The translations under genes and the position numbers were made by a program. Shown here one piece after another: positions 8,105 to 39,600 of a DNA stretch of 64,000 bases. Below the pieces are notes generated by a model, which saw only the letters and a program-made list of their open reading frames with translations, was not told where the DNA came from and did not search any database. The stretch spans positions 93,100 through 157,099 of the forward strand of contig CAZHYZ010000001.1 of assembly GCA_964537195.1 (NCBI GenBank), given 5' to 3'. How positions within the stretch are numbered: position 1 is the first letter of the stretch; the number at the start of each line of letters is the position of its first letter. The stretch is from an uncultured Methanosarcinales archaeon. GTDB taxonomy: Archaea > Nanobdellota > Nanobdellia > Woesearchaeales > GW2011-AR15.

Positions 8105-8240
8105 AAAATCAGAAATAACACTTGAAATGGTTATAATATATATACTTGCACTACTCTTTGCTGTGGTTGTAATTGTATTAGTTGTAAGAAATAATCAGTC
8201 ATTCAGAGATTTATTATCAATGTTTTCAAGAATACTATGA
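8097..8240 (+). CDS. Mini pilin-like ORF (47 aa), absent from the ORF track
   Basis: Own translation: MFKKSEITLEMVIIYILALLFAVVVIVLVVRNNQSFRDLLSMFSRIL, a textbook class III signal peptide. Overlaps the upstream stop by 8 nt and the downstream ATG (ATGA). Confidence 0.35.
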   Translation: MFKKSEITLEMVIIYILALLFAVVVIVLVVRNNQSFRDLLSMFSRIL

Positions 8241-14144: not shown

Positions 14145-14674
14145 CTATAAACACCCAGTTTTAAAACACCAAAATAATTTGAGTTTTTAATAGGGTCTCT
14201 TAATAAAACAGGATAATGAACATACATTATTCCATTATTTTCTGATGGAGGATTATCATAGATATTCCATTCCTCAATCCATTTATTTTCATCAGGGCTT
14301 GGATCAAATCTTTTTACAGTTATATTTAAATTTCCAAGAGCATTATGATAATACCTATCATCTTGAGTTTTTTCTTGCTCTAATCTATCCTTGAATGCAA
14401 TCATCTTTAATATGTCATAGCAATCTGGATCAATATCATTACTATCAGAACATTGCAACTCTGGTATGAAATTGAGAACTTGAGATTTCTTTACTATTTC
14501 CAGCCCCCTAAGTTGTTCAATTTTTTCTTTTCTATCTTGTTCCTGAATTGCCATAACAAAAATAAAAGCTAATATTAGAATAATAAATATAGTAATAAGT
14601 ACAAAGGAGTTCTCCATCATTTGTAACTGAGCTTTTTTTGACATTTTAATATATAGTTGGACAAGCCTTTTCAT
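14141..14674 (-). CDS. Type IV pilin-like protein (start probably MSKKAQ at ~14644)
   Basis: MSKKAQLQMMENSFVLITIFIILILAFIFVMA. Confidence 0.45.
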   Translation of the reverse strand: MKRLVQLYIKMSKKAQLQMMENSFVLITIFIILILAFIFVMAIQEQDRKEKIEQLRGLEIVKKSQVLNFIPELQCSDSNDIDPDCYDILKMIAFKDRLEQEKTQDDRYYHNALGNLNITVKRFDPSPDENKWIEEWNIYDNPPSENNGIMYVHYPVLLRDPIKNSNYFGVLKLGVYR

Positions 14675-15677: not shown

Positions 15678-16156
15678 CTTAATAGAGCAGAATTACCCTT
15701 TCCTATTAATGTAACAGTTAATAATCCTTCGTTCTCTAAGCAAAGATAATCAGATTCTACATTCAAATTATCTACATAAAAAGAGTCCTCGATTATGTTG
15801 TTTTTTAATAAGAAAACATTCTTTGGGACATTATCTTTTATACTGTCTTCTATAAATAAATTATCAATATCAGCATCCAAATCAAAGACTTCTTCATCCG
15901 TCATGGAATCAACAAAACATATTGTGTCGAATCTATCGGGAAGCCGGAACTCATATTTTTCTACAGATTCATATTGTCTAGATATTTTAGACACGATTCT
16001 ATCAAAATCATCTTTTAAATTATCTAGTGGGATTTGGTTGCCTGCCTTAAGTATGGTAGAAACTGCCTTGTAGCCTACAGCAAGTATTATGACTACAATT
16101 ACAGCAGCCATTATATATACAAAAACTTGAGATGATATTTGTGCCTTTGATTTCAT
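15674..16156 (-). CDS. Type IV pilin-like protein
   Basis: MKSKAQISSQVFVYIMAAVIVVIILAVG. Confidence 0.5.
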   Translation of the reverse strand: MKSKAQISSQVFVYIMAAVIVVIILAVGYKAVSTILKAGNQIPLDNLKDDFDRIVSKISRQYESVEKYEFRLPDRFDTICFVDSMTDEEVFDLDADIDNLFIEDSIKDNVPKNVFLLKNNIIEDSFYVDNLNVESDYLCLENEGLLTVTLIGKGNSALLR

Positions 16157-18783
16157 TTTTCGCTTAATTTGTCTAATTTTTCTCTTTCTTCTTTTGTCAA
16201 ACTAGATTTTCTCTTTTTATCTCTCTTGCTAATAATTTCAAGTTCTTCAAATGCATCTTCTTTTGATATGTCTTCTAATCTATTAAATGAACTGCCTTTA
16301 GAAACTTTGTCAGGTATTTTTCCAAGTTTCTCGTAAACTTGCTTTTCAATAGGTCTTATCTTTGGCTCTGTTTCTTCAGCAAACTCATCAAAGATAGACC
16401 TCATTTTTTTTAATCTTAGTTTTTGTCTTTTTTCTCTTAGTTTTTGATCTAGTTCTGTTATTTGAGTACGTTGTTCTGGTTGTTGTGTTGATGTTGAAAC
16501 TGGCAATGGTTCTTTCTCCATTTGTTTTTGTGTCTCTTTAAAATTAACCATTGGTTTTTTCCCAGAGGGTTTAATCTTGGTTTTTGGAGTCTTTGGACTA
16601 TTTTGTGCAAATAGAACTATGCCTCCAACAACGGCTCCAAGTCCTAAAATAAACAATAATATATTCATGAAATATGATTTTGGAAAACTATCAGGATTAT
16701 CTGGTTCAGTGTCATTGTCATATTCCTGTTTATCTGTGTAGCCATCACCATCTGTATCTTCTTTATTTATGTCACTACCAAAAAAACATTCGATTTTATT
16801 TGTTAATCCATCACCATCATCATCAACATCAGCGTCGCTTGAATTATTTGGATTAAGCCCACATTCTTCCTCTTTTATGTCAGTTATTCCATCACCGTCA
16901 CTATCGGCATTGGGATCAAATGGTTTATCCGTATCATCATTTGGGTCTGAGTTTTCATTAATTTCTTCATAATCAGTGTAACCATCATCATCACTATCCT
17001 CTAGTAAGGGGTTTGTTTCATAATTATACTCTTCTAAATTAGTAAGGCCGTCATCATCAGCATCCTCTTCAGCATCTGTTGGGTCGTTAAGATTAAAACC
17101 ATATTCTGTTTCAAAAGCATCAGACATGCCGTCATCATCAGCATCCATGTTTTTTGGAAGACAATCAACATCCTCAGATTCTGTGCAATCTGGATCACAC
17201 ACAGAATCTTCTTCTCCAAGACAGCACCCATCTTCCTCATTTAAACACAAATCTACTTCAATTTCAAAAGAGCCACTAACAGATTTGTTTCCAGAATCTG
17301 TTGCTCTATAACAGATAGTGGAGTCTTCTTTTATTGAAAGGGGAACATAGTACGTTCTATATCCGCAAACCCCGCATTGTTGACAAGAACTATTTGTATC
17401 CGAATCAATAATAAAATATTGGACATTTTTACATGGTCCGTCATCGTCTTTACATATTAGGCTAATCTTAACTTCAGAAGCAGATGCTGCTTCAGTATAA
17501 TTAATTGTGGGGGGATTATTGGTTTGGCAATATTCGGCAGTGCTAGGTAAAATTTCTGTACTGCTGCTTTTTTTGGTAGTTCCATTATTCCCAGCCAAGT
17601 CAGTTGCATATACACTCCAATAGTACTCAACACCAACACTTAGGTTGAGTCCTCCAAGAATTGCTGTTTTTTCTGTAAATCCCTCAACTATTGTTTCGTT
17701 CTCATCTTCAAAAACATAATGATAACCTTTTAGTCCAATGTTGTCTGTACTTGAGAAACTTGCACTTATGTTTGTAGTATTACACCAATAATCTGGAGCA
17801 GATATTGTTGGCGTTGAAGGTTTACTTAGATCAACAACAAAAGATATCTCTTCTTCTTTTACATCTGGTTTTCCTTGGTCAAAAACACATTGTATAAGGA
17901 TATTATAAGGTCCTTGTTCTTTTATTTCTAATTGTCTTAGGTGTGTCTTTGTATGTTCTCCTTGGAAAGTATTAAGAAAATTCTCTCCATAATAACAAAC
18001 AGCATCTCTGTTTGTTTTAATAATGACATCAACCTCTTCAGTGGCAATATGTCCTGCTGGAGACATTTCTACTATTTTGTTAGGTAGGGATCTGTTGACA
18101 GCAAAAGTAATTGTTTCTGGAGCAGTTTTATCTCCAGCCCTATTTTCACAGAAGACAGCATATGTATAATTTGTGTTATCCTGAAGGTTAGTTATGTGAT
18201 ATTGATTATCTTGAGTAAAATCAGAAAGATTAACTTGGGAAAAGAAATTAGATATCTCCTCTTCTTGTGTTGGGGGTTCACCAAAAAAACAAACTGTCTT
18301 ATCATCTGTCTCTGCGTGTAAAGTTACTTCCAAATTCTCAATAACTGGATTAGGGTCTGCATATGCACTAATAATTGATGGAGGCGTCTTATCAACCCCA
18401 ATAGTTAATTCTTTTGGATACCCATTGTTAATATAACCATTATCTAGAACTTTACATAGGACATAGACTTTTTTCTCATCTTGTGGATAACCATAATGAA
18501 AATCCTCTATCGTATGATTAAAACCATCCCTTGTAAAATAATTGTCTGTTGAGAAAATCTCAGAAAAATTATAATTAGGGTTTGTACTATAACGACACTC
18601 AGAGATATTGCTAACACGAACAACAAAATTAAAAGTATCTACTTTTGAAATACCAAACATTGGTTCTAAAAGTGTGATATTAATGAGACTTCTGTTATAA
18701 TCTGCATATGCAAAAGGAACCACATAAAATAGTAAGAAAACTATCAAAATAACCCTGCTTAAACTATTTTTCAACAATTTCAC
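16153..18783 (-). CDS. Type I membrane surface glycoprotein (S-layer-like?) with Sec signal peptide, many N-glycosylation sequons, TSP3-like Asp-rich calcium-binding repeats, a C-terminal TM and a K/E-rich cytoplasmic tail
   Basis: MKLLKNSLSRVILIVFLLFYVVPFAYA|DY. More than 20 NxS/T sequons. DADDDGLTNLEEY / DSDGDGITD repeats at ~16700-17250. TM helix YFMNILLFILGLGAVVGGIVLF. Confidence 0.6.
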   Translation of the reverse strand: MKLLKNSLSRVILIVFLLFYVVPFAYADYNRSLINITLLEPMFGISKVDTFNFVVRVSNISECRYSTNPNYNFSEIFSTDNYFTRDGFNHTIEDFHYGYPQDEKKVYVLCKVLDNGYINNGYPKELTIGVDKTPPSIISAYADPNPVIENLEVTLHAETDDKTVCFFGEPPTQEEEISNFFSQVNLSDFTQDNQYHITNLQDNTNYTYAVFCENRAGDKTAPETITFAVNRSLPNKIVEMSPAGHIATEEVDVIIKTNRDAVCYYGENFLNTFQGEHTKTHLRQLEIKEQGPYNILIQCVFDQGKPDVKEEEISFVVDLSKPSTPTISAPDYWCNTTNISASFSSTDNIGLKGYHYVFEDENETIVEGFTEKTAILGGLNLSVGVEYYWSVYATDLAGNNGTTKKSSSTEILPSTAEYCQTNNPPTINYTEAASASEVKISLICKDDDGPCKNVQYFIIDSDTNSSCQQCGVCGYRTYYVPLSIKEDSTICYRATDSGNKSVSGSFEIEVDLCLNEEDGCCLGEEDSVCDPDCTESEDVDCLPKNMDADDDGMSDAFETEYGFNLNDPTDAEEDADDDGLTNLEEYNYETNPLLEDSDDDGYTDYEEINENSDPNDDTDKPFDPNADSDGDGITDIKEEECGLNPNNSSDADVDDDGDGLTNKIECFFGSDINKEDTDGDGYTDKQEYDNDTEPDNPDSFPKSYFMNILLFILGLGAVVGGIVLFAQNSPKTPKTKIKPSGKKPMVNFKETQKQMEKEPLPVSTSTQQPEQRTQITELDQKLREKRQKLRLKKMRSIFDEFAEETEPKIRPIEKQVYEKLGKIPDKVSKGSSFNRLEDISKEDAFEELEIISKRDKKRKSSLTKEEREKLDKLSEK

Positions 18784-24344: not shown

Positions 24345-24447
24345 CGCGCCTGAGGAGATTCGAACTCCCGGCCTTCACCTTAGGAGGGTGCTGCTCTTTT
24401 TGGCCCCCAAACAATGTTTGGAGGTATCCAAACTGAGCTACAGGCGC
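24345..24447 (-). tRNA. tRNA-Arg (anticodon CCU) with a ~28-nt non-canonical intron in the D-loop
   Basis: Hand fold of the minus strand gives acceptor GCGCCUG/CAGGCGC, T arm GGGAG-UUCGAAU-CUCCU, anticodon stem GCACC/GGUGA with loop CUCCUAA, and D stem GCUC...GAGC interrupted by ACCUCCAAACAUUGUUUGGGGGCCAAAA. No encoded CCA. Confidence 0.6.
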
Positions 24448-24603
24448 ATTTAAGATTAGCCAGGCCTCAGCTAACTCTCTTTCTCCCATAAAGGGACTAC
24501 TCCGAAGTATCCTCATCGGCCTGGTCATTAAAGGAAAAACATATACATTAAAAAAGTTTAGTAAAAGAAAAATATATAAAACATGTTTCTCTATGAAAAC
24601 ATA

Positions 24604-25137
24604 ATGAAAAAAAGAGGCCAGATAGCAGTAGAGTATATTCTTATTATAACAGTAGCGCTTATGATTATTCTTCCAGGAATTTATCTGTTTAGAAATTATG
24701 TGTCTCAATCAAGTGACCAGATAGTGGAAAGAAGACTAACTGAGATATCTAACTCAATAATAACAAAAGGGAGAAAGATGTATTATTATGGACCACCATC
24801 AAAATCAACGGTAACGGTTGAGTTGCCTCCTGAGATTAGGGCAATGTACCTTCTTGGAGTCAATGGCTCAGATAAGGAAGTAATTGAATCTTACCTAGTT
24901 TTTAGAACAATCTCCTCACAAGGAGAACAAGATTTTCTTTTTGAGTCAGATGTTCCTCTTTATGCTGTGGATGAAGCAAGTAGGTGTGAAATAAGTGATC
25001 AGTGTTCAAAAGGATACTGCATATGTTTTGATAACAGATTTTATTCTAAAGGAATAAAGAACTTTGAAGTGCAGGCTAAAGATTGTATTTTTGGTACTTG
25101 CATATTCATAGATGAAATCTCTCCGGATTTAAGATGA
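24604..25137 (+). CDS. Type IV pilin-like protein (archetypal DUF361-type class III signal peptide)
   Basis: MKKRGQIAVEYILIITVALMIILPGIY. The ORF track starts 21 nt upstream. Confidence 0.55.
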   Translation: MKKRGQIAVEYILIITVALMIILPGIYLFRNYVSQSSDQIVERRLTEISNSIITKGRKMYYYGPPSKSTVTVELPPEIRAMYLLGVNGSDKEVIESYLVFRTISSQGEQDFLFESDVPLYAVDEASRCEISDQCSKGYCICFDNRFYSKGIKNFEVQAKDCIFGTCIFIDEISPDLR

Positions 25138-25787
25138 AGCCAATAAAAAAAAATAATTTTTTTGTGGCCTTGGAAAATTTCAATTCCACGAAAAGTCAAA
25201 CTTATTGGGAGCAAAAAATTCACAAACTTTTTCGCTTTCGAGGGAAATCTCAAATTATAAGTATGGATTTTATAATGACTTTTGTAGTCTATATTTTTGC
25301 ATTGTCTGTTTTTTTCTTTGCTCTCGGAGATGCACTCCCAGTAAATGATGCAGATTTAGATGTTCAGGCTGATTTACTGTTTAATAAGTTGGCAGAAATA
25401 AATGAATCAGTTGATTTTCTTGACAATTCAAAGATTAAAAACCTAGAGTTAGGTAAATATTTTACCAAATATAATTATGATAGTGGGTATCGTCATATCT
25501 TTAGAGATTTTAACAATCCTGCATTCACAAGGACAGATTATTGTATTTATCTTGAGGATCCGAGAACAGGTCTTAGTACAAGAAATGTTGCTGCAGGATT
25601 ACAAGAAGGATATACCATTTATTTTGATGACACAAATAAATGTGGTGAAGTAATAAATAAAGTATATACTATGCAGCCTTATTGTGCTAAAAACATAAAA
25701 ACAGAATCAATAGTGCTAACAAAACCCGTGTTGTATAATGGACAAATAACAAATCTTAAGATATTAATCTGTGCAGAGAAAAGATGA
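25134..25787 (+). CDS. Type IV pilin-like protein
   Basis: RGKSQIISMDFIMTFVVYIFALSVFFFALG. Overlapping start/stop with its neighbours. Confidence 0.45.
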   Translation: MKPIKKNNFFVALENFNSTKSQTYWEQKIHKLFRFRGKSQIISMDFIMTFVVYIFALSVFFFALGDALPVNDADLDVQADLLFNKLAEINESVDFLDNSKIKNLELGKYFTKYNYDSGYRHIFRDFNNPAFTRTDYCIYLEDPRTGLSTRNVAAGLQEGYTIYFDDTNKCGEVINKVYTMQPYCAKNIKTESIVLTKPVLYNGQITNLKILICAEKR

Positions 25788-26326
25788 ATAAAAAAGCCTA
25801 CATATTTTTGATGGATGGTATAATTGCTGTAGTTATACTGACGGTTGGTTTTCTCCTAATTAGTTCGAATAAACCAGATGAGACAACAGAAATTCCAATA
25901 AGTATGATGACTGAGAACACTATGTCTTTATTTTCTAATATTAAATTGTATGAAATATGTGATTTTTCTGATTGTGGTTGCAGCAATGATAAGTTGTCAG
26001 AGTATTGTGCATCTGGTTATATTGAAAATAAAAATCAGACACTCTTAGATTATTTTGGTGAATTATATAATAGATCTATGCAAAGTAGAGCTGATGAGCT
26101 TTTCTATAATATAACAATAGAAAACGACTTGCTTAGGCAAGACATTTTTGGTGTAGAGTTTAAGATAAATGATGAAACAATATATCTACATGGCATAAAC
26201 AAAGAAAAAAGCAAAGACCTAATTTCTTCAAAAAGAATTATTTTCGGATATTATGAAGTGCCTTCTTCGGGTATAATTAATTACTGGGGGCCATATTTGG
26301 CAGAGGTGAATGTATGGCAAGAATAA
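25784..26326 (+). CDS. Type IV pilin-like protein
   Basis: MNKKAYIFLMDGIIAVVILTVGFLLISS. Confidence 0.5.
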   Translation: MNKKAYIFLMDGIIAVVILTVGFLLISSNKPDETTEIPISMMTENTMSLFSNIKLYEICDFSDCGCSNDKLSEYCASGYIENKNQTLLDYFGELYNRSMQSRADELFYNITIENDLLRQDIFGVEFKINDETIYLHGINKEKSKDLISSKRIIFGYYEVPSSGIINYWGPYLAEVNVWQE

Positions 26327-27078
26327 CAAAGAGGGCAATTATTTTTTCTATAGCAAGTTTGTTAATTGTCATAGTGTTTGTCGTTAGTACACAGCTCGTT
26401 ACAGAATTTAGATTGGCAGAATCAGAATTAGAAGTCACAAGAACCAGAGTTAAGATATTAAATGAATTAATAGATGATTTTGAAGAAACATATTTTGACA
26501 GGTTGCTTTATGTGACTTCCAAGAACACTCTTGAAGGATTATCAGAGTATTATGATAGGCATTACAATAATCCATCTGATTATCCTCACACATTAAAAAA
26601 AGCACTAAATATGACAATCCAAAACGGTATTTATATAGATAGAACTGGCAAGCATAACTTGTCAAAAGAAGGTTGTTTTGGGCCGTGTCTTAAAGAAGAC
26701 TATACTTTTAACAAATTAGCTGACTCAATTAAAGAAGAATTTGATTTTCTAGGTATTGATTTACAAATTAATATGAAAATCACAGAAATAGAACAAGTTA
26801 ATCCGTGGACTCTTTCTGTTAGTGCCGAGTTTGAATATTATTTTAAAGATAAAAACAATATCGCATCATGGAAAGGATTCACAGAGAGAACAGTAGAGGT
26901 TAGTATTTATGGGTTGCACGACCCTACTTCCTCATCAAATCCTATTGATAGTAGTTGGATAGTTGATACTAATGAAGATGGAGAATATACAGAAGCTTCT
27001 CTAGAGAGAAAACTTGAAGGTGTTCAAGACCATCAGATGACTTTTTTTGATTATGGGGTGTGTAGCGGAGGATGTTAA
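26314..27078 (+). CDS. Pilin-like membrane-anchored protein
   Basis: MARITKRAIIFSIASLLIVIVFVV. Confidence 0.45.
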   Translation: MARITKRAIIFSIASLLIVIVFVVSTQLVTEFRLAESELEVTRTRVKILNELIDDFEETYFDRLLYVTSKNTLEGLSEYYDRHYNNPSDYPHTLKKALNMTIQNGIYIDRTGKHNLSKEGCFGPCLKEDYTFNKLADSIKEEFDFLGIDLQINMKITEIEQVNPWTLSVSAEFEYYFKDKNNIASWKGFTERTVEVSIYGLHDPTSSSNPIDSSWIVDTNEDGEYTEASLERKLEGVQDHQMTFFDYGVCSGGC

Positions 27079-27989
27079 AAAAATCTCAGGTATCATTTGA
27101 GTTTATCCTAATATTTACACTTGTATTGATGGCATTGATAGGATTTATTTACATAATTAATAGGAGAATTGGAGAGATAAGTGAGCAACAAGAATTTCTT
27201 GCCATGAAAAATCTTGCTAATAACATTAAGAATGAAGTTGTGTTGGCTAGTTCTGTTAGAGATAATTATATTAGGAAGTTTGAGATACCATATAGGATAT
27301 TAGGAAAAGAATATAATATGTTCATTGAGAATGATGAACTTGTTATTGAGACCTTAGAAAATGAAAAAGTTTCTAATTCTTATTTTACTGTTTTCCCTAT
27401 TCATGTAAGAGGAACATTTATTGAAGACATTCAGCCAGATAATAGAGATCATTGTATAACAAAGAATGAATTTGATGGAATAAGGATTGCTAAGAATCAA
27501 GCTAGTCTAGCATCTGAGAAATTTAAGTATGAAGAAGGAGATGAATTTGATGTCCTTGTCAGATTAAACTGTCTTGAAAACATTCAAAGTTTTAGATTTA
27601 CTTTGAGTTATGATGACTCTGTTCTGGAATTAATTGATGATAAACCAGTTACAAGGGTGTCTGATCCTGACCTAAATCCTTTATTTAGTTCTTATACCAC
27701 TGTTTATGATTATTCACCAGACCCAAACATTACTCAGACCATATTGTTTGTTTATCCAGGTAGATTTACTTATGGATACATTGGTAGTGACTGTGAAACA
27801 GGTTCTGGAAATGTTGCTAAATTGAGATTTAGAATAAAAGATATTTCTGAAAATGTAAAAACAGAAATTAATTTTGACCAAACTTTTGAAGAAGACAATC
27901 TGCTTTTGTTGGATTGTTCTAACAAGATTACAAGAGAAGGTTTGCCAGATAGTAAGAAAGGAATTTCATTAACATTATTATCGTCTTGA
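27072..27989 (+). CDS. Type IV pilin-like protein (305 aa)
   Basis: MLKKSQVSFEFILIFTLVLMALIGFIYII. Confidence 0.5.
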   Translation: MLKKSQVSFEFILIFTLVLMALIGFIYIINRRIGEISEQQEFLAMKNLANNIKNEVVLASSVRDNYIRKFEIPYRILGKEYNMFIENDELVIETLENEKVSNSYFTVFPIHVRGTFIEDIQPDNRDHCITKNEFDGIRIAKNQASLASEKFKYEEGDEFDVLVRLNCLENIQSFRFTLSYDDSVLELIDDKPVTRVSDPDLNPLFSSYTTVYDYSPDPNITQTILFVYPGRFTYGYIGSDCETGSGNVAKLRFRIKDISENVKTEINFDQTFEEDNLLLLDCSNKITREGLPDSKKGISLTLLSS

Positions 27990-28047
27990 TTTCGAAAAGT
28001 TTATATAGCTGGGAAATGCTTTTTAGTTTGATAAAGGTGGGGTCGTT

Positions 28048-31000
28048 ATGATGAAAAATGAAAAATTCTTGAAGTTATTTGTAATTGCAATTGTTTTTTT
28101 GTTTGTGTTTTCTTTGATGCCTAAAGATGTTAATGCAGTGAAGTATGTTAATTGTCCAGTGAGTATTGATGGTGTTTCGTGTCCTGGATGTCATGGAAAT
28201 CTAGTAAATGGAGTGTGTCCTGATCCAAGAGAATGTCCGGTAGGTACTACTTGGGGAGGTTATAAATGTAAGAGTGACGGGCTTTGGCATAAAATACCTG
28301 CCTGTACACCAAGCTGTACAGGAAAAGAATGTGGTTCTGGCGGTTGTAATACAGGTAATACATACTGCGGTGTCTGTGTAGGACCATATCTTCAAGACAC
28401 AGCATGTAGTGATGGAGAATGTATGTATCAACCAGCAGAATTAGCAGCATCTGCAACAGAGCTATGTTTAGGAGAAGATGCATCTACATACGAATTTGTC
28501 TTAACTGGAACTAATTCATATTGTGGAGATGTAACAACAATAACTGCTCCATGGCACGAACCAGGAGAGGAAATTGTGATTAATGATAACACGTATGAGC
28601 CTTATACTTTTACAGAAACATTAACCCTACCAGAAGACTATGACCTAAACAATTTAGTTATTACAATCACAAGTAATAGAGAAACAATAAAAAATAATAG
28701 GGATCAAGAATTTGATTATAATGAAGTATGTGTACAAGAAGTAAATCTTGTTGTAGAGTTTGATAATTTTTTCTACTGTCCAAAACCCGGAGAGAATCAT
28801 GCAGGATTTGACTTTTATGAAGATTCAATATATTATGACTTCTATAATGAGGGTGTTGAGAGAGATTGGGATGAATGTGTTTCAAATGATAATATTCAAA
28901 GTTGCACACCGCATGCAACAGATTGTGTTTCTATAGGGGGTTCCTCAGTAAGTATGGGTTCTGCCTTTGATGGAGATGATGATGTGAATGAATATGAAGT
29001 TTGTCATTCTGAAAACAGCATACAAGGAGGCTGGCTTGATCCCGATGTAAATTCAGAAACTTGTGAAATAGTTGATTCTACTTCACCAAGGAGAGCAGAA
29101 TGGTATGATTGCGCACCAAGCCAAGAATGTAGTAAGGGCGTAGACAGTTTTGATAATGACCTTTCAACAGGATTATGTTGTGGAGATGAGGTTGGAGAAT
29201 TTGTTACAGAGACCCTGTCTAAAATTCAAGGAGACACAGAATATGTTAAGGATAACCAAGGCCAGAATTTAGAATACAGTGCATGTTGTGATGAGTCTAT
29301 TAGTTGTGTGGATGAATCTGGTATTTGTAGGGGAATAGGAAACGAGACTTGTGTGTCTAGCGGGGGTTATAGAGCCATTTGTGTTAATAATAATGGAAGA
29401 GGAGAATGGGAATTAGTTCCAGACAACAATTGTGAAGACCTCTGTAATAATTGTGATGTCAATGATGATGGAAAAGTTGACCAAATAGATACAAACACAA
29501 TAACAAGTAATGCATGCACTGAAAATTGCGATGACACTTTTGATATTAATGATGATGGTTTAGTAGATCAATTGGATGTTGATTTATGTACTCCTTTAGT
29601 TGAGGAAGGTGCTATTTGTTTTGGTTGTGGTGATAATGAACTAGATTCAGATGAAGGATGTGATTATGAATCTGATATATTACAATTTAATTGTGTCGAT
29701 GAAGTTTGTGATGGTGCAGTTCTAAAAACACGTTTAGATACTTGTACAGGTGTTTGTTCTTGTGAATATGAAGAATCTTGTGTTATTGGAGAGTGTGGTG
29801 CTGAATGTGCAGAAAATTCAGATTGTGGTGATGGTGAGGAATGTAATGGATGTTTATGCGAAAAGATTGGTTGCCCACCTGGTACACAATTATGTGAGGA
29901 TGACACTTGTAGTGAAAATTGTACTATAACAGACGATGGACCAAAAGGTTGCATTAATGATAACGGAGAATGTGATGAAGGAGAAGGCTGCGCATGTGAA
30001 GATTGTTTGGGGGAAAGAGATAGTTGTAGTGAGGGAGCAGTATGTGGAGAAGATGAACTATGTGGTTGTCCTGTTGGGACAACAATGTGTGAAGATGGTA
30101 CATGCAGTGCTAATTGTGAACTGACAGACGAAGGTGCTGTAGGATGTTTGAATAACAATGGAGAGTGTGATTTTGGAGAAGGTTGTGATTGTATTGATTG
30201 TCATGAAGAACAAGATAGCTGTGTATATGGTGCAGTATGTAACTATTATACAGAATCATGCGAATTACCTTGTGTTGTTACAGAAGACCCAGAAGTTACA
30301 TTAGATGATGGAATTGATAATGATTGTGACGGCTTAATAGATGAACCAAAATTTGATAGTGAATATGGTGCTTATGTTTGGGAATCCAATTGTAGATATT
30401 ATTTGTGTGCAAATGCTCGCGATTCTGAGCCACACACAACAAAAGGAGAAATAGGTGTTGAAGATCCTTATTATCTTTATAGTATAAGAACAATTTTCTG
30501 GGAAACTGCAGATGATTATTCAGTACTCTCAGACAACTTAGGTGTGGATTTTACCTCTTACATTAATAACGATAAAGACTGTATTTTGTTTAAGTCAGAT
30601 ACACTAATGAGTTTTGACCTTGATATGAATGGTTCTCATAGTACAGATAATGTATTCTTAACACAAGAAAAAATAAATCCAATAGAAAATCCTTTTGCAT
30701 TTGCTTCCCCTGAATGTACTCTAAGTTGTACAGATCCAGCAGATTGTGGTAGAGATTCTTTATTATATGGTACAAATTATTGTGGGTTTGAGGAATGTAT
30801 GTTTGATTGTGGGGGATACTGGGTAAATACTTCCTCCTTATTGGGAGATGTCTTTACACCAAGCACCAATCCAGGAGATTATTGTGAAGCCTGTACAGAA
30901 GAGGTTGAATGTTCAGACTATAACAATATAGCAAGTTGTTTGTTTAATCCATGTGATACAGGAGAGTCAATATTTGGTTGTTATTGGAATGAATCATCTT

Positions 31001-32484
31001 TGACATGTGATGATATCTTTGAACCATGTAAGCCTGGTACGACTTTATGTGAGGACGGTACTTGCAGTCATGATTGTGAAGAAACAGACACAGATGAGCA
31101 AGGTTGTATAAATGATAATGGAGAATGTGATGAAGGAGAAGGCTGCGCATGTGAAGATTGTGAAGGTGAACAAGACAGTTGTACAGAAGGTGCTATTTGT
31201 GATGATGATGGTTATTGTGGTTGTCCACCGGGCACAACTTTATGTAAGGACGGTACATGTAGTGACGATTGTGATGAGACAGATGATGGAAATATGGGAT
31301 GTATAGATGAAAATGGTGTCTGTGAATTAGGAGAGGGTTGTGCATGTGAGGATTGTAATGGTTACCAAGATAGTTGTGTTGATGATGCAGTATGTAATTA
31401 TTTCTTGGAGGAATGTGTAGAGCTTGAAATAGGAAATTGTCCCGAAGGTACAACTTTGTGTGAAGACTTAACCTGTGATGAAGATTGCGAAGGTCATGGT
31501 GGCAAGGCAGGCTGTATAGGAGACCCAAATGATGACTGTGAATTAGGAGAAGGTTGTGCATGTATTGATTGTAATAATAAAAGAGATAGTTGTGATGTGG
31601 GTTTAGTGTGTAATTATGAATATGAATTATGTGAAAGTCTTCCAAGTGGCGGCGGAACACAAGCTTGTGAAGATAATGACAATGATGGTTACTATGAAAT
31701 AGATGAAGATTGCTTTGGGAGCGATGATTGTAATGATTATAACTCGGCAGTCCACCCGGGAGCTATAGAACTTTGTAATAATATTGATGATGATTGTGAT
31801 GGTGACATAGATGAAAATTGTTTTTCAGATGATGGAGAAAGTTTAGATTTATCTATAAGTAGCACAACAGGTTCTGCAAGAGTATTAGACAAATTTACAC
31901 TTGTTGCCACAGTCAAGAATAGACTTGATAGAACTGTTTCTGATGTTTTGGTCTCATTAGAGGTTCCATCTAAATTTGCAGTTAAAGGTGGCTCAGTAAA
32001 GATTGATGAGATACCCGCAAATGGAGAAAAAGAACTTTCATTTGAAGTTATTGTAAAAGATTATACTCAGGAAAGTGTAGAATTCACACTAAATGCAAAA
32101 GTCTCAAATGATAATATTATATCTGAAGATTTCAATATAGGAATTGAGGTCCCAGACTTTTTAATAGCGCCAATGCCCATGTTTGAATATCCAAACACAA
32201 GAAGAGTTTGTTTAGACTTTTATTATGTAATAAACAATCCTTCTTTAGGAATGGTGGATGTTGAGTTTGAGATAACAAATCCAAAAGCAGTATTTGGAAA
32301 AAGTGTGGTTGTAGATTATGTTTCATCAGTTGATTCAGACAACATACTTGCTAGGCCATTGCTTTCAAACCCCTATTGTATTTCAGGAGGAGAAACATAT
32401 CATGTAAATGGCTATTTATATAAGCCCGGCGCATTTATTGTGGACAAGGTTGACGAAAGTTCAGAAACATTAGTATTAGGATAA
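28048..32484 (+). CDS. Giant (1478 aa) secreted Cys-rich adhesin-like protein with at least five EGF-like ~60-aa Cys modules, MopE-like DxDCDGxIDE motifs and a C-terminal CARDB-like beta-sandwich region
   Basis: Sec signal ...PKDVNA|VKY. Repeated CPPGTxLCEDGTCSxxCExTDDGxxGCINDNGECDEGEGCACEDC modules. DDGIDNDCDGLIDE and NNIDDDCDGDIDENC. LVATVKNRLDRTVSDVLVSLEVP...NGEKELSFEV. Confidence 0.65.
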   Translation: MMKNEKFLKLFVIAIVFLFVFSLMPKDVNAVKYVNCPVSIDGVSCPGCHGNLVNGVCPDPRECPVGTTWGGYKCKSDGLWHKIPACTPSCTGKECGSGGCNTGNTYCGVCVGPYLQDTACSDGECMYQPAELAASATELCLGEDASTYEFVLTGTNSYCGDVTTITAPWHEPGEEIVINDNTYEPYTFTETLTLPEDYDLNNLVITITSNRETIKNNRDQEFDYNEVCVQEVNLVVEFDNFFYCPKPGENHAGFDFYEDSIYYDFYNEGVERDWDECVSNDNIQSCTPHATDCVSIGGSSVSMGSAFDGDDDVNEYEVCHSENSIQGGWLDPDVNSETCEIVDSTSPRRAEWYDCAPSQECSKGVDSFDNDLSTGLCCGDEVGEFVTETLSKIQGDTEYVKDNQGQNLEYSACCDESISCVDESGICRGIGNETCVSSGGYRAICVNNNGRGEWELVPDNNCEDLCNNCDVNDDGKVDQIDTNTITSNACTENCDDTFDINDDGLVDQLDVDLCTPLVEEGAICFGCGDNELDSDEGCDYESDILQFNCVDEVCDGAVLKTRLDTCTGVCSCEYEESCVIGECGAECAENSDCGDGEECNGCLCEKIGCPPGTQLCEDDTCSENCTITDDGPKGCINDNGECDEGEGCACEDCLGERDSCSEGAVCGEDELCGCPVGTTMCEDGTCSANCELTDEGAVGCLNNNGECDFGEGCDCIDCHEEQDSCVYGAVCNYYTESCELPCVVTEDPEVTLDDGIDNDCDGLIDEPKFDSEYGAYVWESNCRYYLCANARDSEPHTTKGEIGVEDPYYLYSIRTIFWETADDYSVLSDNLGVDFTSYINNDKDCILFKSDTLMSFDLDMNGSHSTDNVFLTQEKINPIENPFAFASPECTLSCTDPADCGRDSLLYGTNYCGFEECMFDCGGYWVNTSSLLGDVFTPSTNPGDYCEACTEEVECSDYNNIASCLFNPCDTGESIFGCYWNESSLTCDDIFEPCKPGTTLCEDGTCSHDCEETDTDEQGCINDNGECDEGEGCACEDCEGEQDSCTEGAICDDDGYCGCPPGTTLCKDGTCSDDCDETDDGNMGCIDENGVCELGEGCACEDCNGYQDSCVDDAVCNYFLEECVELEIGNCPEGTTLCEDLTCDEDCEGHGGKAGCIGDPNDDCELGEGCACIDCNNKRDSCDVGLVCNYEYELCESLPSGGGTQACEDNDNDGYYEIDEDCFGSDDCNDYNSAVHPGAIELCNNIDDDCDGDIDENCFSDDGESLDLSISSTTGSARVLDKFTLVATVKNRLDRTVSDVLVSLEVPSKFAVKGGSVKIDEIPANGEKELSFEVIVKDYTQESVEFTLNAKVSNDNIISEDFNIGIEVPDFLIAPMPMFEYPNTRRVCLDFYYVINNPSLGMVDVEFEITNPKAVFGKSVVVDYVSSVDSDNILARPLLSNPYCISGGETYHVNGYLYKPGAFIVDKVDESSETLVLG
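29965..30006. repeat. 42-nt perfect intragenic repeat (copy 1; copy 2 at 31120..31161) within the Cys-module gene
   Basis: ggagaatgtgatgaaggagaaggctgcgcatgtgaagattgt is identical at both sites. Confidence 0.7.
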
Positions 32485-32527: not shown

Positions 32528-33592
32528 ATGTTTGTATTCGGAATAAATCTTCCATTGCCAGAAATTTTCTTTATACTAGTTTTCATATTCTTAATATGTC
32601 TATTTTTGATATTATATCAGTTACAGAGATTACAAAAAATGACTACAGAAGAACAAGCAGAGTTGGCAGAGTTAGAGAAACTAGCGCAAGAGGAAAAAAA
32701 GGATTTAGAACAAATTAAAGCATTTGAGACAATGGAAGGTCAGGATTTGGGGAAATTTGAAAAGGACATAGCAGAACTTGAACAGGATACAGAAACACTA
32801 TATCTAAAGAACCTTGCTCCTGATTTGTATAAATTACAGAATTATGTTCTTTGGGCCTTGAAAAAGGGAATGTCACCAGACCAGATTAAAGATAATTTAT
32901 TGAACAAAGGCTGGAAGGACGATAAGTTAATGGAAATGGTCATAAAGGATACCTTGAATTATGTTGATTATTATAAGGGCAAGAAGGGTAAAGTCCAAAT
33001 ACCTCATGTCAAAGTAGAGGAAAAAACCCACATTATTCATCCTGTAAAAATTATAGAGAAAGGATCTCCCAAAGTAGAGATGGAAATTGAGGAGAAACCA
33101 AGGGAAAAGACTACAAAGAAAAAATCAACTAAGAAGAAAGCTTCCAAATCAAAGACCAAGAAAAAATCAGCAACCACAAAAAAATCCTCAAAGAAAAAAT
33201 CAAAAGATGAGTTTGCATCAGTTGAGAAAGAATTGCAAAAACTAGAAAAAGAGTTAAAAAAAGAAGAAAAGAAAACAAAGAGTTCTAAGAAGAAGTCTTC
33301 TACAAAGAAATCAAACAAGAAGAAATCTACTAAGAAAAAATCAACTAAGAAAAGTTCTAAGAAAAAAAGCAAACCGAAGACCAAGAAAAAGACAGCAAAG
33401 ACAAAGAGTTCTAAGAAGAAGTCTTCTACAAAGAAAAGTCCTAAGAAGACTACTAAAAAGAAATCTTCCAAGAAGAAATCAACTTCCAAAAAGAAGAAAA
33501 CTACTAAAAAGAAATCTTCCAAGAAATCAAAGAGCAAGGGTGTTGTTGTAGAAGCAGACAAAGACGTAGATGTTCACGTAAAATACAAATAA
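32528..33592 (+). CDS. Membrane-anchored coiled-coil protein with a long Lys/Ser/Thr-rich histone H1-like tail
   Basis: N-terminal TM, EEQAELAELEKLAQEEKKDLEQ coiled coil, then ~180 aa of KKKSTKKKS-type low complexity. Internal in-frame 35-nt perfect DNA repeat (33276..33310 and 33402..33436). Confidence 0.5.
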   Translation: MFVFGINLPLPEIFFILVFIFLICLFLILYQLQRLQKMTTEEQAELAELEKLAQEEKKDLEQIKAFETMEGQDLGKFEKDIAELEQDTETLYLKNLAPDLYKLQNYVLWALKKGMSPDQIKDNLLNKGWKDDKLMEMVIKDTLNYVDYYKGKKGKVQIPHVKVEEKTHIIHPVKIIEKGSPKVEMEIEEKPREKTTKKKSTKKKASKSKTKKKSATTKKSSKKKSKDEFASVEKELQKLEKELKKEEKKTKSSKKKSSTKKSNKKKSTKKKSTKKSSKKKSKPKTKKKTAKTKSSKKKSSTKKSPKKTTKKKSSKKKSTSKKKKTTKKKSSKKSKSKGVVVEADKDVDVHVKYK

Positions 33593-34174: not shown

Positions 34175-36601
34175 ATGAAACTTCCAAAGAGATATGATCC
34201 AAAAGAATCAGAGAAAAAGTGGCAAGAATACTGGGAAAAGAACCAAATTTACAAGTTTGATAAAAAAGATACTAAAAGACCACTTTATGTAATAGACACA
34301 CCACCACCAACTGTTTCTGGTGATATGCACTTAGGACATGCTTTTTCATATTCTCAAAATGATTTTGTAGCAAGATATCAGAGAATGACAGGTAAGAATG
34401 TTTTTTATCCTTTTGGAACAGATGATAATGGTCTTGCAACAGAAAGATTGGTTGAAAGAAAAAACAAAATTCGTTCTGTAAATATGAAGCGCTCTGAATT
34501 CATTAAATTATGCCTTACCACTTTAGATAAGATAAGACCGGACTTTATCCAAGATTGGAAAAATATTGGAATGAGTTGTGACTTTTCATTATTCTATTCT
34601 ACTATTAATGACCATTGCCGTAGAATAAGCCAGTGGTCTTTCTTAGATTTATACAAAAGGGGTAGAGAGTACAGAAAAGAAGCACCAACTATGTGGTGTC
34701 CCGAATGCCAGACAGCAATAGCACAGGTTGAGTTAGAAGACAAAGAATTCAAGAGTACTTTTAATGACTTGATATTCAAAATAGGGGACAAAGATTTAAT
34801 TATCGCTACAACAAGACCAGAGTTATTGAGTAGTTGTGTTGCTGTTTTTGTACACCCAGATGATAAACGATATAAGAAATATGTTGGGAAGAAAGCAATC
34901 GTTCCAATATTCAATCATGAAGTTCCTATTTTAGTTGATAAAAGAGCTGATATGGAAAAAGGTACGGGGGCAGTAATGTGCTGTACTTTTGGTGACCAGA
35001 CAGACATTGAGTGGTATAAAGCACACAATCTCCCTTTAAGGATTTCTATAACAAAAGACGGAAGGATGACAAAAAAGGCAGAAAAATATGAAGGAATGTC
35101 TACAAAAGAAGCACGCAAGATGATTATTGAAGACCTGGATAAACAAGGTCTTCTTGTAAAACAAGAACCAATTAAACATACAGTAAATGTTCACGAGCGT
35201 TGTGGAATACCTGTTGAAATCCTAAATACAAAACAATGGTTTATACAATATCTAGATTTAAAAGACCTATTCTTAATAAAAGGGGCAGAGATGAACTGGT
35301 ATCCACAACATATGCGTTCTAGATTAGATAATTGGATAGAAGGATTACAATGGGATTGGTGTATCTCAAGACAGAGACATTTTGGAGTCCCATTCCCTGT
35401 GTGGTATTGTAAGAAATGTGATAAAGAGATTATTGCAAAACAAAAAGATTTACCAGTTGATCCCATGGAGGATAAGCCACCTGTAAAAAAATGTCCTGAA
35501 TGTGGCTCTACAGAATTTATTCCAGAAAAAGATGTTTTTGATACCTGGGCGACATCTTCATTAACTCCAATGTTGGCTGGAGAATTAATTAAAGGAACAC
35601 CTAATTACAAGAAGATGTATCCAATGGACTTAAGGCCACAGGCTCACGACATAATTACTTTTTGGCTCTTCAATACAATGGTTAAAAGTCAATTACACTT
35701 TGATAGAAATCCCTGGGAGGACATAATAATTTCAGGTTGGGCACTTGATCCTCACGGTAAAAAAATGTCCAAGAGCAAAGGCAATGTGATTCATCCACAA
35801 GAGATGATTAAGAAATATTCTGCAGATGCATTGAGATTCTGGGCAGCAGGCTCTAAACTTGGAGAGGATTTACCATTCCAAGAAAAAGACTTAGTTACGG
35901 GCAAGAAAACCATTACAAAATTATGGAATGCATCCAAGTTTTCACTAATGCATTTAGAAGATTACAAAGGAGAAAAGCCAGAACTTGAGGTAATGGATAA
36001 ATGGTTATTAACTAAATTGCAGAAGTTGATTTTTAGTGTTACTGAATCTTTTGAAAAATATGAATATTCAAAAGTTAAACAAGAGACAGAACAGTTTTTC
36101 TGGAATGTCTTTTGTGATAATTATCTTGAGATTGCTAAAGATAGGCTCTATAATCCTGAACAGCATAGAGAAGGTGCAAGAGAATCTGGCCAATATGCTC
36201 TTTATGAAGCCTCACTTAACATATTGAAGTTATTTGCTCCAATAATGCCTTACATAACAGAAGAAATCTACCAGTTATATCATGCAGAAAAAGAGAAATT
36301 ACTTAGCATACATGTATCTCAATGGCCACAGTTTAATGAAAAATTAGTATATAATGATGCAGAGAAAACAGGAGATTATGCTGTAGATATAATCTCTGCC
36401 GTTAGAAAGTTCAAATCTGAAAAAAATCTCTCCTTGAAAACAGAGCTTAAGATGTTGACAATTGAATGTTCTAAAAGGGTTAGAGAATTGCTTGAATTAA
36501 TATTGGGAGATTTATCTGCAACAACAAAAGCTAAAGATATTGAATTTGGAAAAGCAGATTTACAAATAAATGATAAAATAAAATTATCTATTGAATTATA
36601 A
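34175..36601 (+). CDS. valS: Valyl-tRNA synthetase (class I aaRS). Start preferred at MKLPKRYDPKE after the RBS aaaggtga; the ORF track starts at 34121.
   Basis: PPPTVSGDMHLGHA (HIGH) and KMSKSKGN (KMSKS). Editing-domain-sized insertion. Confidence 0.8.
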   Translation: MKLPKRYDPKESEKKWQEYWEKNQIYKFDKKDTKRPLYVIDTPPPTVSGDMHLGHAFSYSQNDFVARYQRMTGKNVFYPFGTDDNGLATERLVERKNKIRSVNMKRSEFIKLCLTTLDKIRPDFIQDWKNIGMSCDFSLFYSTINDHCRRISQWSFLDLYKRGREYRKEAPTMWCPECQTAIAQVELEDKEFKSTFNDLIFKIGDKDLIIATTRPELLSSCVAVFVHPDDKRYKKYVGKKAIVPIFNHEVPILVDKRADMEKGTGAVMCCTFGDQTDIEWYKAHNLPLRISITKDGRMTKKAEKYEGMSTKEARKMIIEDLDKQGLLVKQEPIKHTVNVHERCGIPVEILNTKQWFIQYLDLKDLFLIKGAEMNWYPQHMRSRLDNWIEGLQWDWCISRQRHFGVPFPVWYCKKCDKEIIAKQKDLPVDPMEDKPPVKKCPECGSTEFIPEKDVFDTWATSSLTPMLAGELIKGTPNYKKMYPMDLRPQAHDIITFWLFNTMVKSQLHFDRNPWEDIIISGWALDPHGKKMSKSKGNVIHPQEMIKKYSADALRFWAAGSKLGEDLPFQEKDLVTGKKTITKLWNASKFSLMHLEDYKGEKPELEVMDKWLLTKLQKLIFSVTESFEKYEYSKVKQETEQFFWNVFCDNYLEIAKDRLYNPEQHREGARESGQYALYEASLNILKLFAPIMPYITEEIYQLYHAEKEKLLSIHVSQWPQFNEKLVYNDAEKTGDYAVDIISAVRKFKSEKNLSLKTELKMLTIECSKRVRELLELILGDLSATTKAKDIEFGKADLQINDKIKLSIEL

Positions 36602-39600
36602 TCTTTTCAGAACTCCATCAATATATTCCTCATTAATGCCTTGCCCTTTTAGTAATGTCTTAATCTCCTCAGGATCATCTGTTTTGTATTTTTCTTTTAC
36701 TTCTTTTATCTTGCTTTTTATTATCTCATCCATCTTGTCCTCTTTTACAAATTCGAATTTTGTCTTTATCAAGACAACACCAAGAATTATTGCAATTAAG
36801 ATAAGAGATGGAATAGCAATATTAACTGGGGAATATTCTCCTTCTTTGAAATTAGATGAGTAAACAAAATCTTCTAGTTTATCTAAGCAGCCTTTGTCAA
36901 CAGTTCCTTCAACATCATATGTTATCTCTAGGTCTTCTTCAACATTGGCAAATCTCCAAGCAATAACTGGGTCATCTTCAATAACATTGTAGTTTTTCCC
37001 ATTAAAATATATGTTCTGAGATTGTTGAGCAAGACATTTTGGTACATTCTGATAGTAGACAAAATCTTCAACAGGATCCTCAACCTTCATAGAAAGTCTA
37101 TATCTTGTGAATTTCTTATCTTCTTTCATAAATACCATCTTCTCAAATTTTAAAGAGTTTTTCATCCTTTCAGAATTACTTTCTAATGTATTTCTCATTT
37201 CGGGGGAAACATTTAGGAATGAAGATTCCATAAGGTTGTTTAACTTTAATTGTTGTGTTCTTATAACTTGGTGGAAGGTCTCACTTACTATATTTATTTC
37301 AGAACAATCCTCTTGATTCGGGTTGTATTTGTTTGGACAGTTATCTATATTTCCGCAAATACTGTCTTCATCAATATCATTATTAGCATCTTCTGGACAC
37401 AAATCACATACGTTGCCTATTTTATCTTCATCAGAATCTTCTTGATTCGGATTGAAAACAGTAGGACAGTTGTCTATGTTGCCACAGATACCATCATCAT
37501 CAAAATCATTTAAAGGATCTGAAGGACATATATCACACTCATCTCCAATACCGTCATTGTCTGTGTCATTTTGTTTTGGATTATATATTTCTGGGCAATT
37601 GTCAACTATATCTTGGAAACCATCTCCATCAGAATCAGTTGAGCATGAAGAGTCAAAGTCGCAAGCATCTCCTATGCCATTGTTATCACAATCAATTTGG
37701 CTAGGATTGAATTTGTTTGGACAATTATCAAAATTACCGCAAATTAAGTCGTTATCAATATCATTCTCAGGGTCGTTTATACACTTATCGCACGTATCTC
37801 CTTTTCCGTCTTTGTCTGAGTCAAATTGGTTTTGGTTCTTAAGGGTGGGACAATTATCTATGTTGCCACAGATACCATCATCATCTATATCATTTAATGG
37901 ATCCAATGGGCAAATATCACAAGCATCTCCAATTCCATCTCCGTCTTTATCGAGTTGGTAGGGATTATCTATCTCAGCACAATTATCTTCTACATTAATA
38001 AATTCATCATAATCAATTTCTGTACTGCAATCAGAATCTAAGTCACAGGCATCTCCAGTGTTGTCATTATCGCAATCTATCTGGTTGAGATTAAATCTTG
38101 TTGGGCAGTTATCTATATTTCCGCAGATACCATCTTTATCAAGGTCATTATAAGGATCATCTCTACAAATGTCGCACACATCTCCAATCCCGTCAGAATC
38201 TATGTCTTTTTGATTGGTATTTCTTGTTAAGGGACAGTTGTCTACGTCCCCACAAATACCATCTCTGTCTTCATCATTAAAAGGATCTTGTGGACACCCA
38301 TCACAGGCATCTCCAATGTTGTCATTATCACAATCCTTTTGTTTTGGATTATATATTTCTGGGCAATTGTCAACTATATCTTGGAAACCATCTCCATCAG
38401 AATCAGTTGAGCATGAAGAGTCAAAGTCGCAAGCATCTCCAATGTTGTCATTATCACAATCTGTCTGGCTTGGATTATATCTTCCCGGACAATTATCTAT
38501 GTTGCCGCAATAATTGTCTGAGTCAATATCATTTAGTTCATCCTTTGGGCATTGGTCGCATATATTTCCCAGGCCATCATCATCTGAATCTACTTGAGTT
38601 GGATTATATTGATAAGGACAATTATCTATGTCTCCACCAACCCCATCATTATCAACATCATTAAATGGATCATTAGGAAAATCATCGCAGACATCTCCTA
38701 ATTTGTCTCCATCACTATCTCTCTGATTTTTATTTGATTTGCTTGGGCAGTTGTCTATGTTATCTGCTATACCGTCTCCATCAGAATCAGTTGAGCATGA
38801 AGAGTCAAAGTCGCAAGCATCTCCAATGTTATCATTATCACAATCTTTTTGTTGTGGGTTTGGTTTGTCTGGGCAATTATCTATGTTACCACACACACCA
38901 TCAAAATCCTTATCATTAAATTCATCTTCTGGGCAATCATCACACACATCTCCAATTCCATCTCCGTCTGAGTCTTCTTGGTCTTCGTTTGGATAATAAG
39001 GACAGTTATCTTCATCTGCACACTTACCATCTCCATCTATATCATTGTCCACATCATATGGACACTCATCGCAAGCATCTCCAGCTCCCGCACCATCAGA
39101 ATCTTTTTGTTGTGGGTTTGGAGTGTAGACACAATTATCTATTTCATCACACCATCCGTCATCATCATAATCATTATCTAAAATACAACTACCTTCTCCA
39201 CCACATTTAATAACACCCGGACAAGAGTTCATATTACACGGAATCTCTAAAGTGTAATCTCCTTCATCTTCTTCATTCTCATCTATTAAGGAATCACAGT
39301 CATCATCTAAACCATTACATACTTCTGTTTTTGGACCTATGCTGTTTCTGCAAGTAGACCATTCACCATTTACACATGTCTGAGTTCCTTGTTTACATTC
39401 TCCTGTTGATATGCCACATGGATTTGTCTCTCCATTATCACAGTTACCACAACCTTCATCTGTGCTTCCATCACAATCATTGTCTAGATTGTCGCCGCAT
39501 ATTTCATTTATGGGTTTAATTTCTCCAACACATTCTTTATTTGTAAAATCCCATTCACCATTTTCACAAGTTGCTGTTTGAGTTCCTTTTTTACATTCTC

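Follow-up and report, generated by a model that had tools for sequence, protein, structure and literature searches.

The pilin-like genes and the giant gene downstream

This study concerns a run of five small pilin-like genes, and the gene for a giant secreted protein that follows them, in a 64,000-nucleotide (nt) stretch of contig CAZHYZ010000001.1 that we call the window throughout, meaning the whole stretch of DNA analysed, at its full length. The window has a low GC content (~33%) and is archaeal in character, encoding PCNA and an archaeal-type PEP carboxylase. The proteins studied here have their homologues in metagenome-assembled genomes of Woesearchaeota and Nanoarchaeota, among them the complete genome 'Archaeon GW2011_AR15', and our taxonomic placement follows the names given to these homologues and to related genome records. 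An earlier description made from the letters alone, which we call the sequence-only reading, had placed here an overlapping plus-strand run of five small genes followed by a 1478-amino-acid (aa) giant, and our map of the open reading frames (ORFs) agrees with this layout. Two features had gone unnoticed in that description, a cohesin domain on the fifth pilin and a dockerin-like module inside the giant protein, and it is on these that our interpretation is built. The genes and features in question are as follows.

24604..25137 (+): pilin-like gene 1 (ORF1, which opens at 24583); 177 aa from the ATG at 24604; N-terminus MKKRGQIAVEYILIITVALMIIL; Class_IIIsignal 26.3 bits against a cut-off of 23.7
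25134..25787 (+): pilin-like gene 2 (ORF2); 217 aa; RGKSQIISMDFIMTFVVYIFAL after a ~38-aa leader; no Pfam match
25784..26326 (+): pilin-like gene 3 (ORF3); 180 aa; N-terminus MNKKAYIFLMDGIIAVVILTVGF; no Pfam family at cut-off; kept in the related loci L001 and L004
26314..27078 (+): pilin-like gene 4 (ORF4); 254 aa; N-terminus MARITKRAIIFSIASLLIVIVFV; no Pfam family at cut-off; kept in L001 and L004
27072..27989 (+): pilin-cohesin fusion (ORF5); 305 aa; class-III-like N-terminus MLKKSQVSFEFILIF
27519..27980 (+): cohesin domain of the fusion protein; aa 150-303
28000-28007 and 28036-28042 (+): TTTATATA and GGTGGGG ahead of the giant gene, read from the sequence
28048..32484 (+): giant secreted protein; 1478 aa; 9.5% Cys, 21.5% Asp+Glu
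29455..29604 (+): dockerin-like module of the giant; aa 470-519; two calcium loops, each with a helix after it, the module being flanked by invariant Cys
29455-29490 (+): calcium loop 1, DVNDDGKVDQID
29542-29577 (+): calcium loop 2, DINDDGLVDQLD

The stops and starts of the five pilin-like ORFs overlap by 4, 4, 13 and 7 nt, in order, and a 58-nt gap separates the last of them from the giant gene. Each of the five small proteins has one strongly hydrophobic segment at its N-terminus and none further on, and in each case the segment is preceded by a short basic leader ending in [KR][GAS]. Class III signals had been ascribed to all five, and this pattern of leader and hydrophobic segment is indeed present throughout, but the threshold of the Pfam model Class_IIIsignal (PF04021) is passed by ORF1 only. 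ORF5 scores 23.2 bits, 0.5 below the cut-off, and ORFs 2 to 4 have no match, their class III signals being recognisable by pattern only. Upstream of the ATG at 24604, at a distance of ~29 nt, stands a TATA-like 'atatataa' (24572-24579), which favours this codon as the start of ORF1 and suggests that its message is leaderless. The true start of pilin-like gene 2 is uncertain: its leader of ~38 aa would be unusually long if translation began at 25134, with the hydrophobic segment at aa 46-64, and its homologues in L001 and L004 have a common N-terminus, ...KSQ(L/I)(V/I)SMDFI....

The giant protein begins with a Sec-type N-terminus (aa 1-30, hydrophobic segment MMKNEKFLKLFVIAIVFLFVFSLMPKDVNA), predicted to be a signal with a positive n-region, a 14-residue hydrophobic core and VNA before residue 31. 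Past this point no hydrophobic segment was found across the whole 1478 aa, and hence no other anchor of this kind. Of the homologues of the giant (P0039-P0048), most are about as long as it is, or longer, and one (P0040) carries the NCBI name 'MopE-related protein'. Ahead of the gene, the TATA-like TTTATATA and the Shine-Dalgarno-like GGTGGGG may be its own promoter and ribosome-binding site, so that strict co-transcription with the pilin genes is not required.

A cohesin on the fifth pilin and a dockerin-like module in the giant protein

ORF5 joins a pilin with a class-III-like signal to a true cohesin domain. The Pfam model Cohesin (PF00963) matches aa 154-275 at 35.7 bits, against a cut-off of 24.1, and precomputed PF00963 annotation is present on most homologues of the protein. 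The profile of the ORF5 family matches cohesins in the PDB at E=1.3e-8. The family alignment (A1, 22 sequences) also served as the basis of an AlphaFold2 (AF2) model, which reached a predicted local distance difference test score (pLDDT) of 90.5 and which consists of an N-terminal helix (aa 3-60), a beta domain (aa 66-148) and a C-terminal beta-sandwich. A helix of this length (58 residues) is typical of type IV pilins. When the PDB was searched with this model using Foldseek, the top 50 matches were all cohesins, with probability 1.0; target template modelling (TM) scores were ~0.7 for the best single-domain cohesins, and the archaeal cohesin of Archaeoglobus fulgidus (2xdh) stood at rank 38 (TM 0.69). 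There is one cohesin per protein. The fusion family is small, coherent and lineage-restricted: a profile search of 1.84 billion representatives recovered the full-length fusion in ~30 clusters at 50% identity, beyond which the matches divide into multi-cohesin scaffoldin-like proteins and short pilins.

The dockerin-like module of the giant contains two canonical 12-residue loops (D-x-N/D-x-D-G-x-x-D/N-x-x-D), 29 aa apart, and a pattern scan of all six frames of the window found this paired-loop arrangement at no other site. All 11 homologues of the giant keep the module, together with four invariant flanking Cys. A profile built from the module retrieved dockerins as all of its top 18 PDB matches, with E-values from 4e-4 and both loops aligned, and Pfam Dockerin_1 (PF00404) matches every member of the module family (10/10), below its gathering score. 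In the AF2 model a helix follows each loop (pLDDT 82-92). The same dockerin profile had no match at E<=0.001 in a set of 5.8 billion proteins, because the module is too short for a database of that size.

We gathered related loci through the pilin-cohesin family from individual contigs, species genomes and metagenomes, scanned them with the profile of the dockerin-like module, and removed duplicates before counting. In ~13 of the ~20 distinct Woesearchaeota and Nanoarchaeota loci (the window, L001, L006, L008, L009, L010, L012, L015, L018, L019, L023, L024 and L035/L036, L008 being the complete genome GW2011_AR15), the cohesin-pilin gene has a dockerin or dockerin-like gene just downstream on its own strand. 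The dockerin gene is the next one in most of these, with one ORF between in L015 and L035. Several of the downstream proteins score above the Dockerin_1 cut-off of 22.9 bits, namely those of L015 (24.3), L018 (69.6), L019 (34.8) and L035 (29.8).

What the dockerin is attached to varies. Among close relatives the cargo belongs to the giant's own family, with insertions or losses; the orthologue in the syntenic locus L001, for example, is 2058 aa long and has two extra Laminin_G_3 domains. In distant loci the cargo is unrelated to the giant of the window, combining Laminin_G_3, Kazal and PPC domains in L015 and being a Cys-poor beta-propeller protein in L019. The downstream protein of L018 has two dockerins, and that of L035 has MopE and TSP3 elements. 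Since the cargo differs but the dockerin is retained, the constant neighbour of the cohesin-pilin is the dockerin and not the cargo. The cargo can also be absent. In L011 the giant gene is missing between the pilin gene and the gene for a conserved lysine-rich membrane protein (L011:10984-11784), which directly follows the cohesin-pilin there; in the window (32528-33592, +), in L023 and probably in L001 this gene comes after the giant gene. The giant gene is thus a presence/absence difference at a conserved locus.

One further protein was seen in these comparisons. The Nanoarchaeota genome of L016 encodes, two genes downstream of the cohesin-pilin, a 1322-aa protein (L016:7254-11219, +) with several Hint, intein-like and AXH domains, in which no dockerin was detectable.

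Other parts of the giant protein and of the window

The remaining features of the giant lie downstream of the dockerin-like module.

29872..30264 (+): Cys modules M1 and M2; aa 609-739
30289..30345 (+): half of a MopE-type motif; aa 748-766, ...DDGIDNDCDGLIDE; PF11617 20.3 bits against a cut-off of 27
31027..31635 (+): Cys modules M3, M4 and M5; aa 994-1196
31726..31815 (+): complete MopE-type putative metal-binding motif; aa 1227-1256; PF11617 49 bits against 27
31840..32481 (+): conserved C-terminal region; ~215 aa; kept in P0038-P0047

A Cys module repeated at least five times had been described in the giant, and five modules of 65-66 aa are indeed present (aa 609-673, 674-739, 994-1058, 1059-1124 and 1131-1196), arranged 2+3 and each with 10 Cys that are invariant or near-invariant. 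The EGF-like label given to them was dropped: M1-M2 matched no Pfam family at E<=1, EGF models included, the Cys-module profile retrieved nothing relevant from the PDB (best E 0.5, a nuclease), and the modules have low confidence in the AF2 model (pLDDT <50). The perfect 42-nt repeat reported at 29965 and 31120 is exact, M1 29965-30006 being identical to M3 31120-31161. Around it, the rest of the duplicated block is 67% identical, and the expected number of such runs is ~2e-5; within it, the codons are identical at 14/14 positions, versus 45/71 elsewhere. Because the tract is perfect despite 67% identity around it, with all 14 codons identical, it points to local gene conversion. We also considered concerted evolution between modules as a general pattern and set it aside, since the module identity matrix is ambiguous on this point (M5 is clearly orthologous across species, and M1 and M3 are about as similar within one protein as between species) and the 42-nt tract alone points to gene conversion. 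The suggestion that modules may be gained or lost fits the comparison between species, as homologues of the giant have 0, 2, 3, 4 or 5 modules; the 2+3 arrangement is stable in orthologues down to 42% identity.

The two MopE-like motifs of the sequence-only reading come down to one complete motif and a second that covers PF11617 profile positions 14-30 only. Its CARDB-like C-terminus fared similarly. CARDB (PF07705) scores 19.1-19.2 bits on this region, below its threshold of 22.7, and is matched by 1/9 homologous C-terminal regions; other weak matches are to the unrelated beta-sandwich families NPCBM_assoc and adaptin ear domain. We have downgraded the CARDB identity to a generic beta-sandwich, and the region probably consists of Ig-like beta-sandwich domains.

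In L004, a relative without the giant gene, the pilin cluster adjoins the gene of a 633-aa protein (L004:11356-13257, -) that combines GILT, DsbA and thioredoxin-type domains and may be relevant to disulfide formation in Cys-rich surface proteins.

The region as a whole is unusually rich in pilin-like surface proteins. At 1703-5383 (-) a protein of 1226 aa, class-III-like at its N-terminus (MKLRKRGTEYSLFLVV), has an NlpC/P60 domain (47.6 bits) and an SLT lytic transglycosylase domain (23.7 bits); three small pilin-like ORFs (5380-6822, -) come before it. Both are peptidoglycan-cutting domains, here in an archaeal pilin-like protein, and the protein could be a tool against bacterial cell walls. 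A second pilin-like cluster stands beside a large surface protein at 13674-18783 (-), where a protein of 876 aa, bearing TSP3_bac repeats and a weak match to fn3, is followed by four small class-III-like ORFs; in the one of the four that was scanned, 14646-15677, no cohesin was detected. At 36596-40501 (-) lies a secreted protein of 1301 aa that contains 109 Cys and, in 13 copies, the thrombospondin type 3 calcium-binding repeat (191.6 bits). Three further plus-strand genes, at 8237-12028, 40583-42436 and 42487-44406, encode proteins of 1263, 617 and 639 aa with class-III-like N-termini (MNKRGLTLE..., MRKSQSSLF... and MKKAQSSLF..., respectively) and no Pfam match.

Two GC-rich elements on the minus strand lie just upstream of the pilin-like genes. 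The one at 24346-24447 is a tRNA-like gene missed by ARAGORN; the Rfam tRNA model covers 24353-24405 only, at 22.7 bits, below the cut-off of 29, and the anticodon loop CUCCUAA implies Arg (CCU). By eye, its 5' half (GCGCCTGTAGCTCAGTTTGGATA...) is set apart by a ~27-nt insertion in the D-loop region, which points to a non-canonical intron. Two copies of the 13-mer acgcgcctgagga are present, at ~24288 and ~24344. The second element, at 24462-24531, has a terminal stem (CCAGGCC...GGCCTGG) around GATGAGG and CTGA and resembles a C/D-box small RNA; it had no Rfam match at E<=0.1.

Proposed display of the giant on a pilus, rival explanations and known systems

Taken together, the fused cohesin and the dockerin-like module suggest that the giant protein is tethered non-covalently to the fifth pilin by a calcium-dependent cohesin-dockerin pair, as a form of type-IV-pilin display in a tiny, Woesearchaeota-like (DPANN) archaeon of symbiotic type; we put the probability of this at about 0.55. 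The five prepilin-like proteins would be processed and assembled by a type IV pilus machinery whose genes lie in another part of the genome, probably as a minor-pilin or tip set and not as the bulk of the filament, by analogy with bacterial minor-pilin operons. The N-terminal helix of ORF5 would enter the filament, exposing the beta domain and the C-terminal cohesin. The giant, exported through Sec and lacking a membrane anchor, would fold outside the cell as a disulfide-rich, calcium-rich protein, and its internal module, with two EF-hand-type loops, would plug into the cohesin of the pilin. The Cys modules, the MopE motif and the C-terminal beta-sandwich region would then be shown on the pilus, where the giant would most likely serve as an adhesin for a host cell or surface.

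Support for pilus display comes from the fusion itself, from the dockerin-like module, from the lack of any other anchor on the giant, and from a dockerin gene that is conserved downstream of the cohesin-pilin across differing cargo. From these we infer the physical binding of the two modules, the location of the giant on a pilus, its position at the tip and its adhesive function. The sequence-only reading had already cast the pilins as an anchor and the giant as cargo, and that division of roles fits our results; the cohesin, the dockerin-like module and their conserved pairing make it more specific, while the domain labels that accompanied it are weaker than first thought.

Several observations weigh against pilus display through such a pair. 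The module in the window scores 17.6-18.2 bits with Dockerin_1, below the cut-off of 22.9, and a fold search with an AF2 model of mixed quality returned nothing significant (best E 0.34), with X-dockerin chains at ranks 3 and 12 (probability <=0.25). The module is internal and flanked by Cys, unlike typical dockerins, which are terminal. About seven informative loci have the cohesin-pilin and no nearby dockerin gene (L004, L011, L013, L016, L017, L020 and L039). The window proteins that were scanned include neither a pilus ATPase nor a prepilin peptidase; the syntenic locus L001 has a T2SSE-family ATPase ~6 kb upstream. The promoter-like motif of the giant gene belongs on this side as well.

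Some of these points would be accommodated if the two modules were not partners at all. The EF-hand pair would then be a structural calcium site, the cohesin would bind a dockerin encoded elsewhere or a ligand on a host surface, and the two genes would be adjacent since both encode surface proteins. The sub-threshold Pfam score, the insignificant fold search and the seven loci without a neighbouring dockerin gene all agree with this, and the other calcium-repeat giants of the window (13 TSP_3 repeats at 36596-40501 and TSP3_bac at 16153-18783) imply that acidic calcium motifs are common in this genome. Yet the dockerin is retained downstream of the cohesin-pilin when the cargo is unrelated, with L015, L018, L019 and L035 all above the Pfam cut-off; the 18 best PDB matches of the module profile are dockerins and not generic EF-hands; and the giant is left without an alternative anchor. 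We consider a lack of partnership unlikely, and give it the weight we do mainly because the module in the window falls below the Pfam threshold and some loci have no neighbouring dockerin gene.

It is less probable still that the five pilin-like proteins form a short pseudopilus, akin to that of type II secretion, which would aid the export or release of the giant instead of displaying it. Five small class-III-like proteins in an overlapping operon do resemble a pseudopilin set, and in Omnitrophota the neighbours of giant extracellular dockerin-type proteins include small class-III-signal genes and loci resembling those of type II secretion (bioRxiv 10.1101/2023.11.21.568195). The giant of the window, however, has a Sec-type signal of its own, and a cohesin on a pseudopilin would still imply the capture of a dockerin protein. 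To our knowledge, such archaea lack an outer membrane that would have to be crossed. It is in cellulosomes that cohesin-dockerin pairs are most familiar, as the PDB matches reflect, and a miniature cellulosome-like enzyme complex for polymer degradation could be imagined here too. We regard this as very improbable: each pilin has a single cohesin, and neither the giant nor its homologues showed a catalytic or carbohydrate-active domain, their only matches being to MopE, Laminin_G_3, Kazal, PPC, SLH and beta-propeller domains.

If pilus display through a cohesin-dockerin pair is correct at this locus, the pilus-borne cohesin might be a general socket for varied dockerin-tagged surface proteins (Cys-module giants, lectin-like, Kazal-type and beta-propeller proteins) in Woesearchaeota-type DPANN. 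We hold this broader idea tentatively, with somewhat less confidence than even odds. Were it true, swapping or losing the cargo gene at a single locus would retune adhesion, including the choice of host; type IV pili would have a new means of carrying adhesins, and cohesin-dockerin pairs a cellular role that is new as well.

Attachment to other cells is largely unknown in the very small DPANN archaea and almost no Woesearchaeota have been cultured, and the cohesin-bearing pilin and dockerin-bearing giant offer a concrete attachment hypothesis. Pilus display, if borne out, would take cohesin-dockerin biology beyond enzyme scaffolds, to adhesins mounted on pili, and it would be a third means by which a large protein other than a pilin is loaded onto a type IV filament. 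Differences between lineages in surface or host specificity would also have a genomic marker, in the variable cargo of a conserved locus.

Earlier work has described cohesin-dockerin pairs, type IV pilins of archaea and archaeal cohesins from outside cellulosomes. Our literature search, which left most subscription journals outside its reach, found no description of a pilin-cohesin fusion or of cohesin or dockerin in DPANN/Woesearchaeota; the nearest ideas in print are the adhesins proposed in consortia of ANME and sulfate-reducing bacteria and the Omnitrophota giants, both compared below. One functional parallel is with the anchoring scaffoldins of Clostridia (the type II cohesins of SdbA, OlpB and ScaB; PDB 2bm3, 2b59 and 3l8q), in which a surface-anchored cohesin captures a dockerin partner in a calcium-dependent manner, as we suppose the cohesin of ORF5 to do, and which ORF5 matches by sequence profile and fold. 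The anchor differs, being an SLH domain or a sortase signal in the scaffoldins and the N-terminus of a type IV pilin here. Our system also differs in having one cohesin per protein, a non-enzymatic Cys-rich giant as its cargo, an internal dockerin flanked by conserved cysteines, and a DPANN-type archaeon as its bearer.

Among archaea, the cohesin of A. fulgidus (PDB 2xdh) likewise lies outside cellulose degradation, and in consortia formed by anaerobic methane-oxidising archaea (ANME) with sulfate-reducing bacteria, it has been proposed that cohesin and dockerin proteins act as modules for cell-cell adhesion (PMC10553843). For neither the A. fulgidus cohesin nor these adhesins did we find a fusion to a pilin or placement in a pilin operon. 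The Omnitrophota giants resemble ours in being extracellular, in having dockerin-like elements and in standing beside small class-III-signal genes; they differ in being bacterial and much larger, in their proposed role in predation, and in that no pilin-cohesin fusion has been reported for them. The MopE-type motif (PF11617) is a likeness of a narrower sort, since the one complete copy (aa 1227-1256) takes up ~30 of the 1478 aa of the giant, has little bearing on the protein as a whole, and has only putative metal binding.

In organisation, there is a bacterial counterpart. PilY1, which is not a pilin, is a large calcium-binding protein exported through Sec; a type IV pilus displays it as an adhesin, and it joins the tip by its C-terminal domain. 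The fimU-pilVWXY1E operon brings together four or five small pilin-like genes and one such large pilus-displayed adhesin, and our five-gene set, which has no assembly ATPase nearby, resembles minor-pilin operons of this type, by analogy only. The likeness is one of organisation. PilY1 enters the tip complex through a domain of its own, whereas the giant described here would be mounted through a cohesin-dockerin pair.

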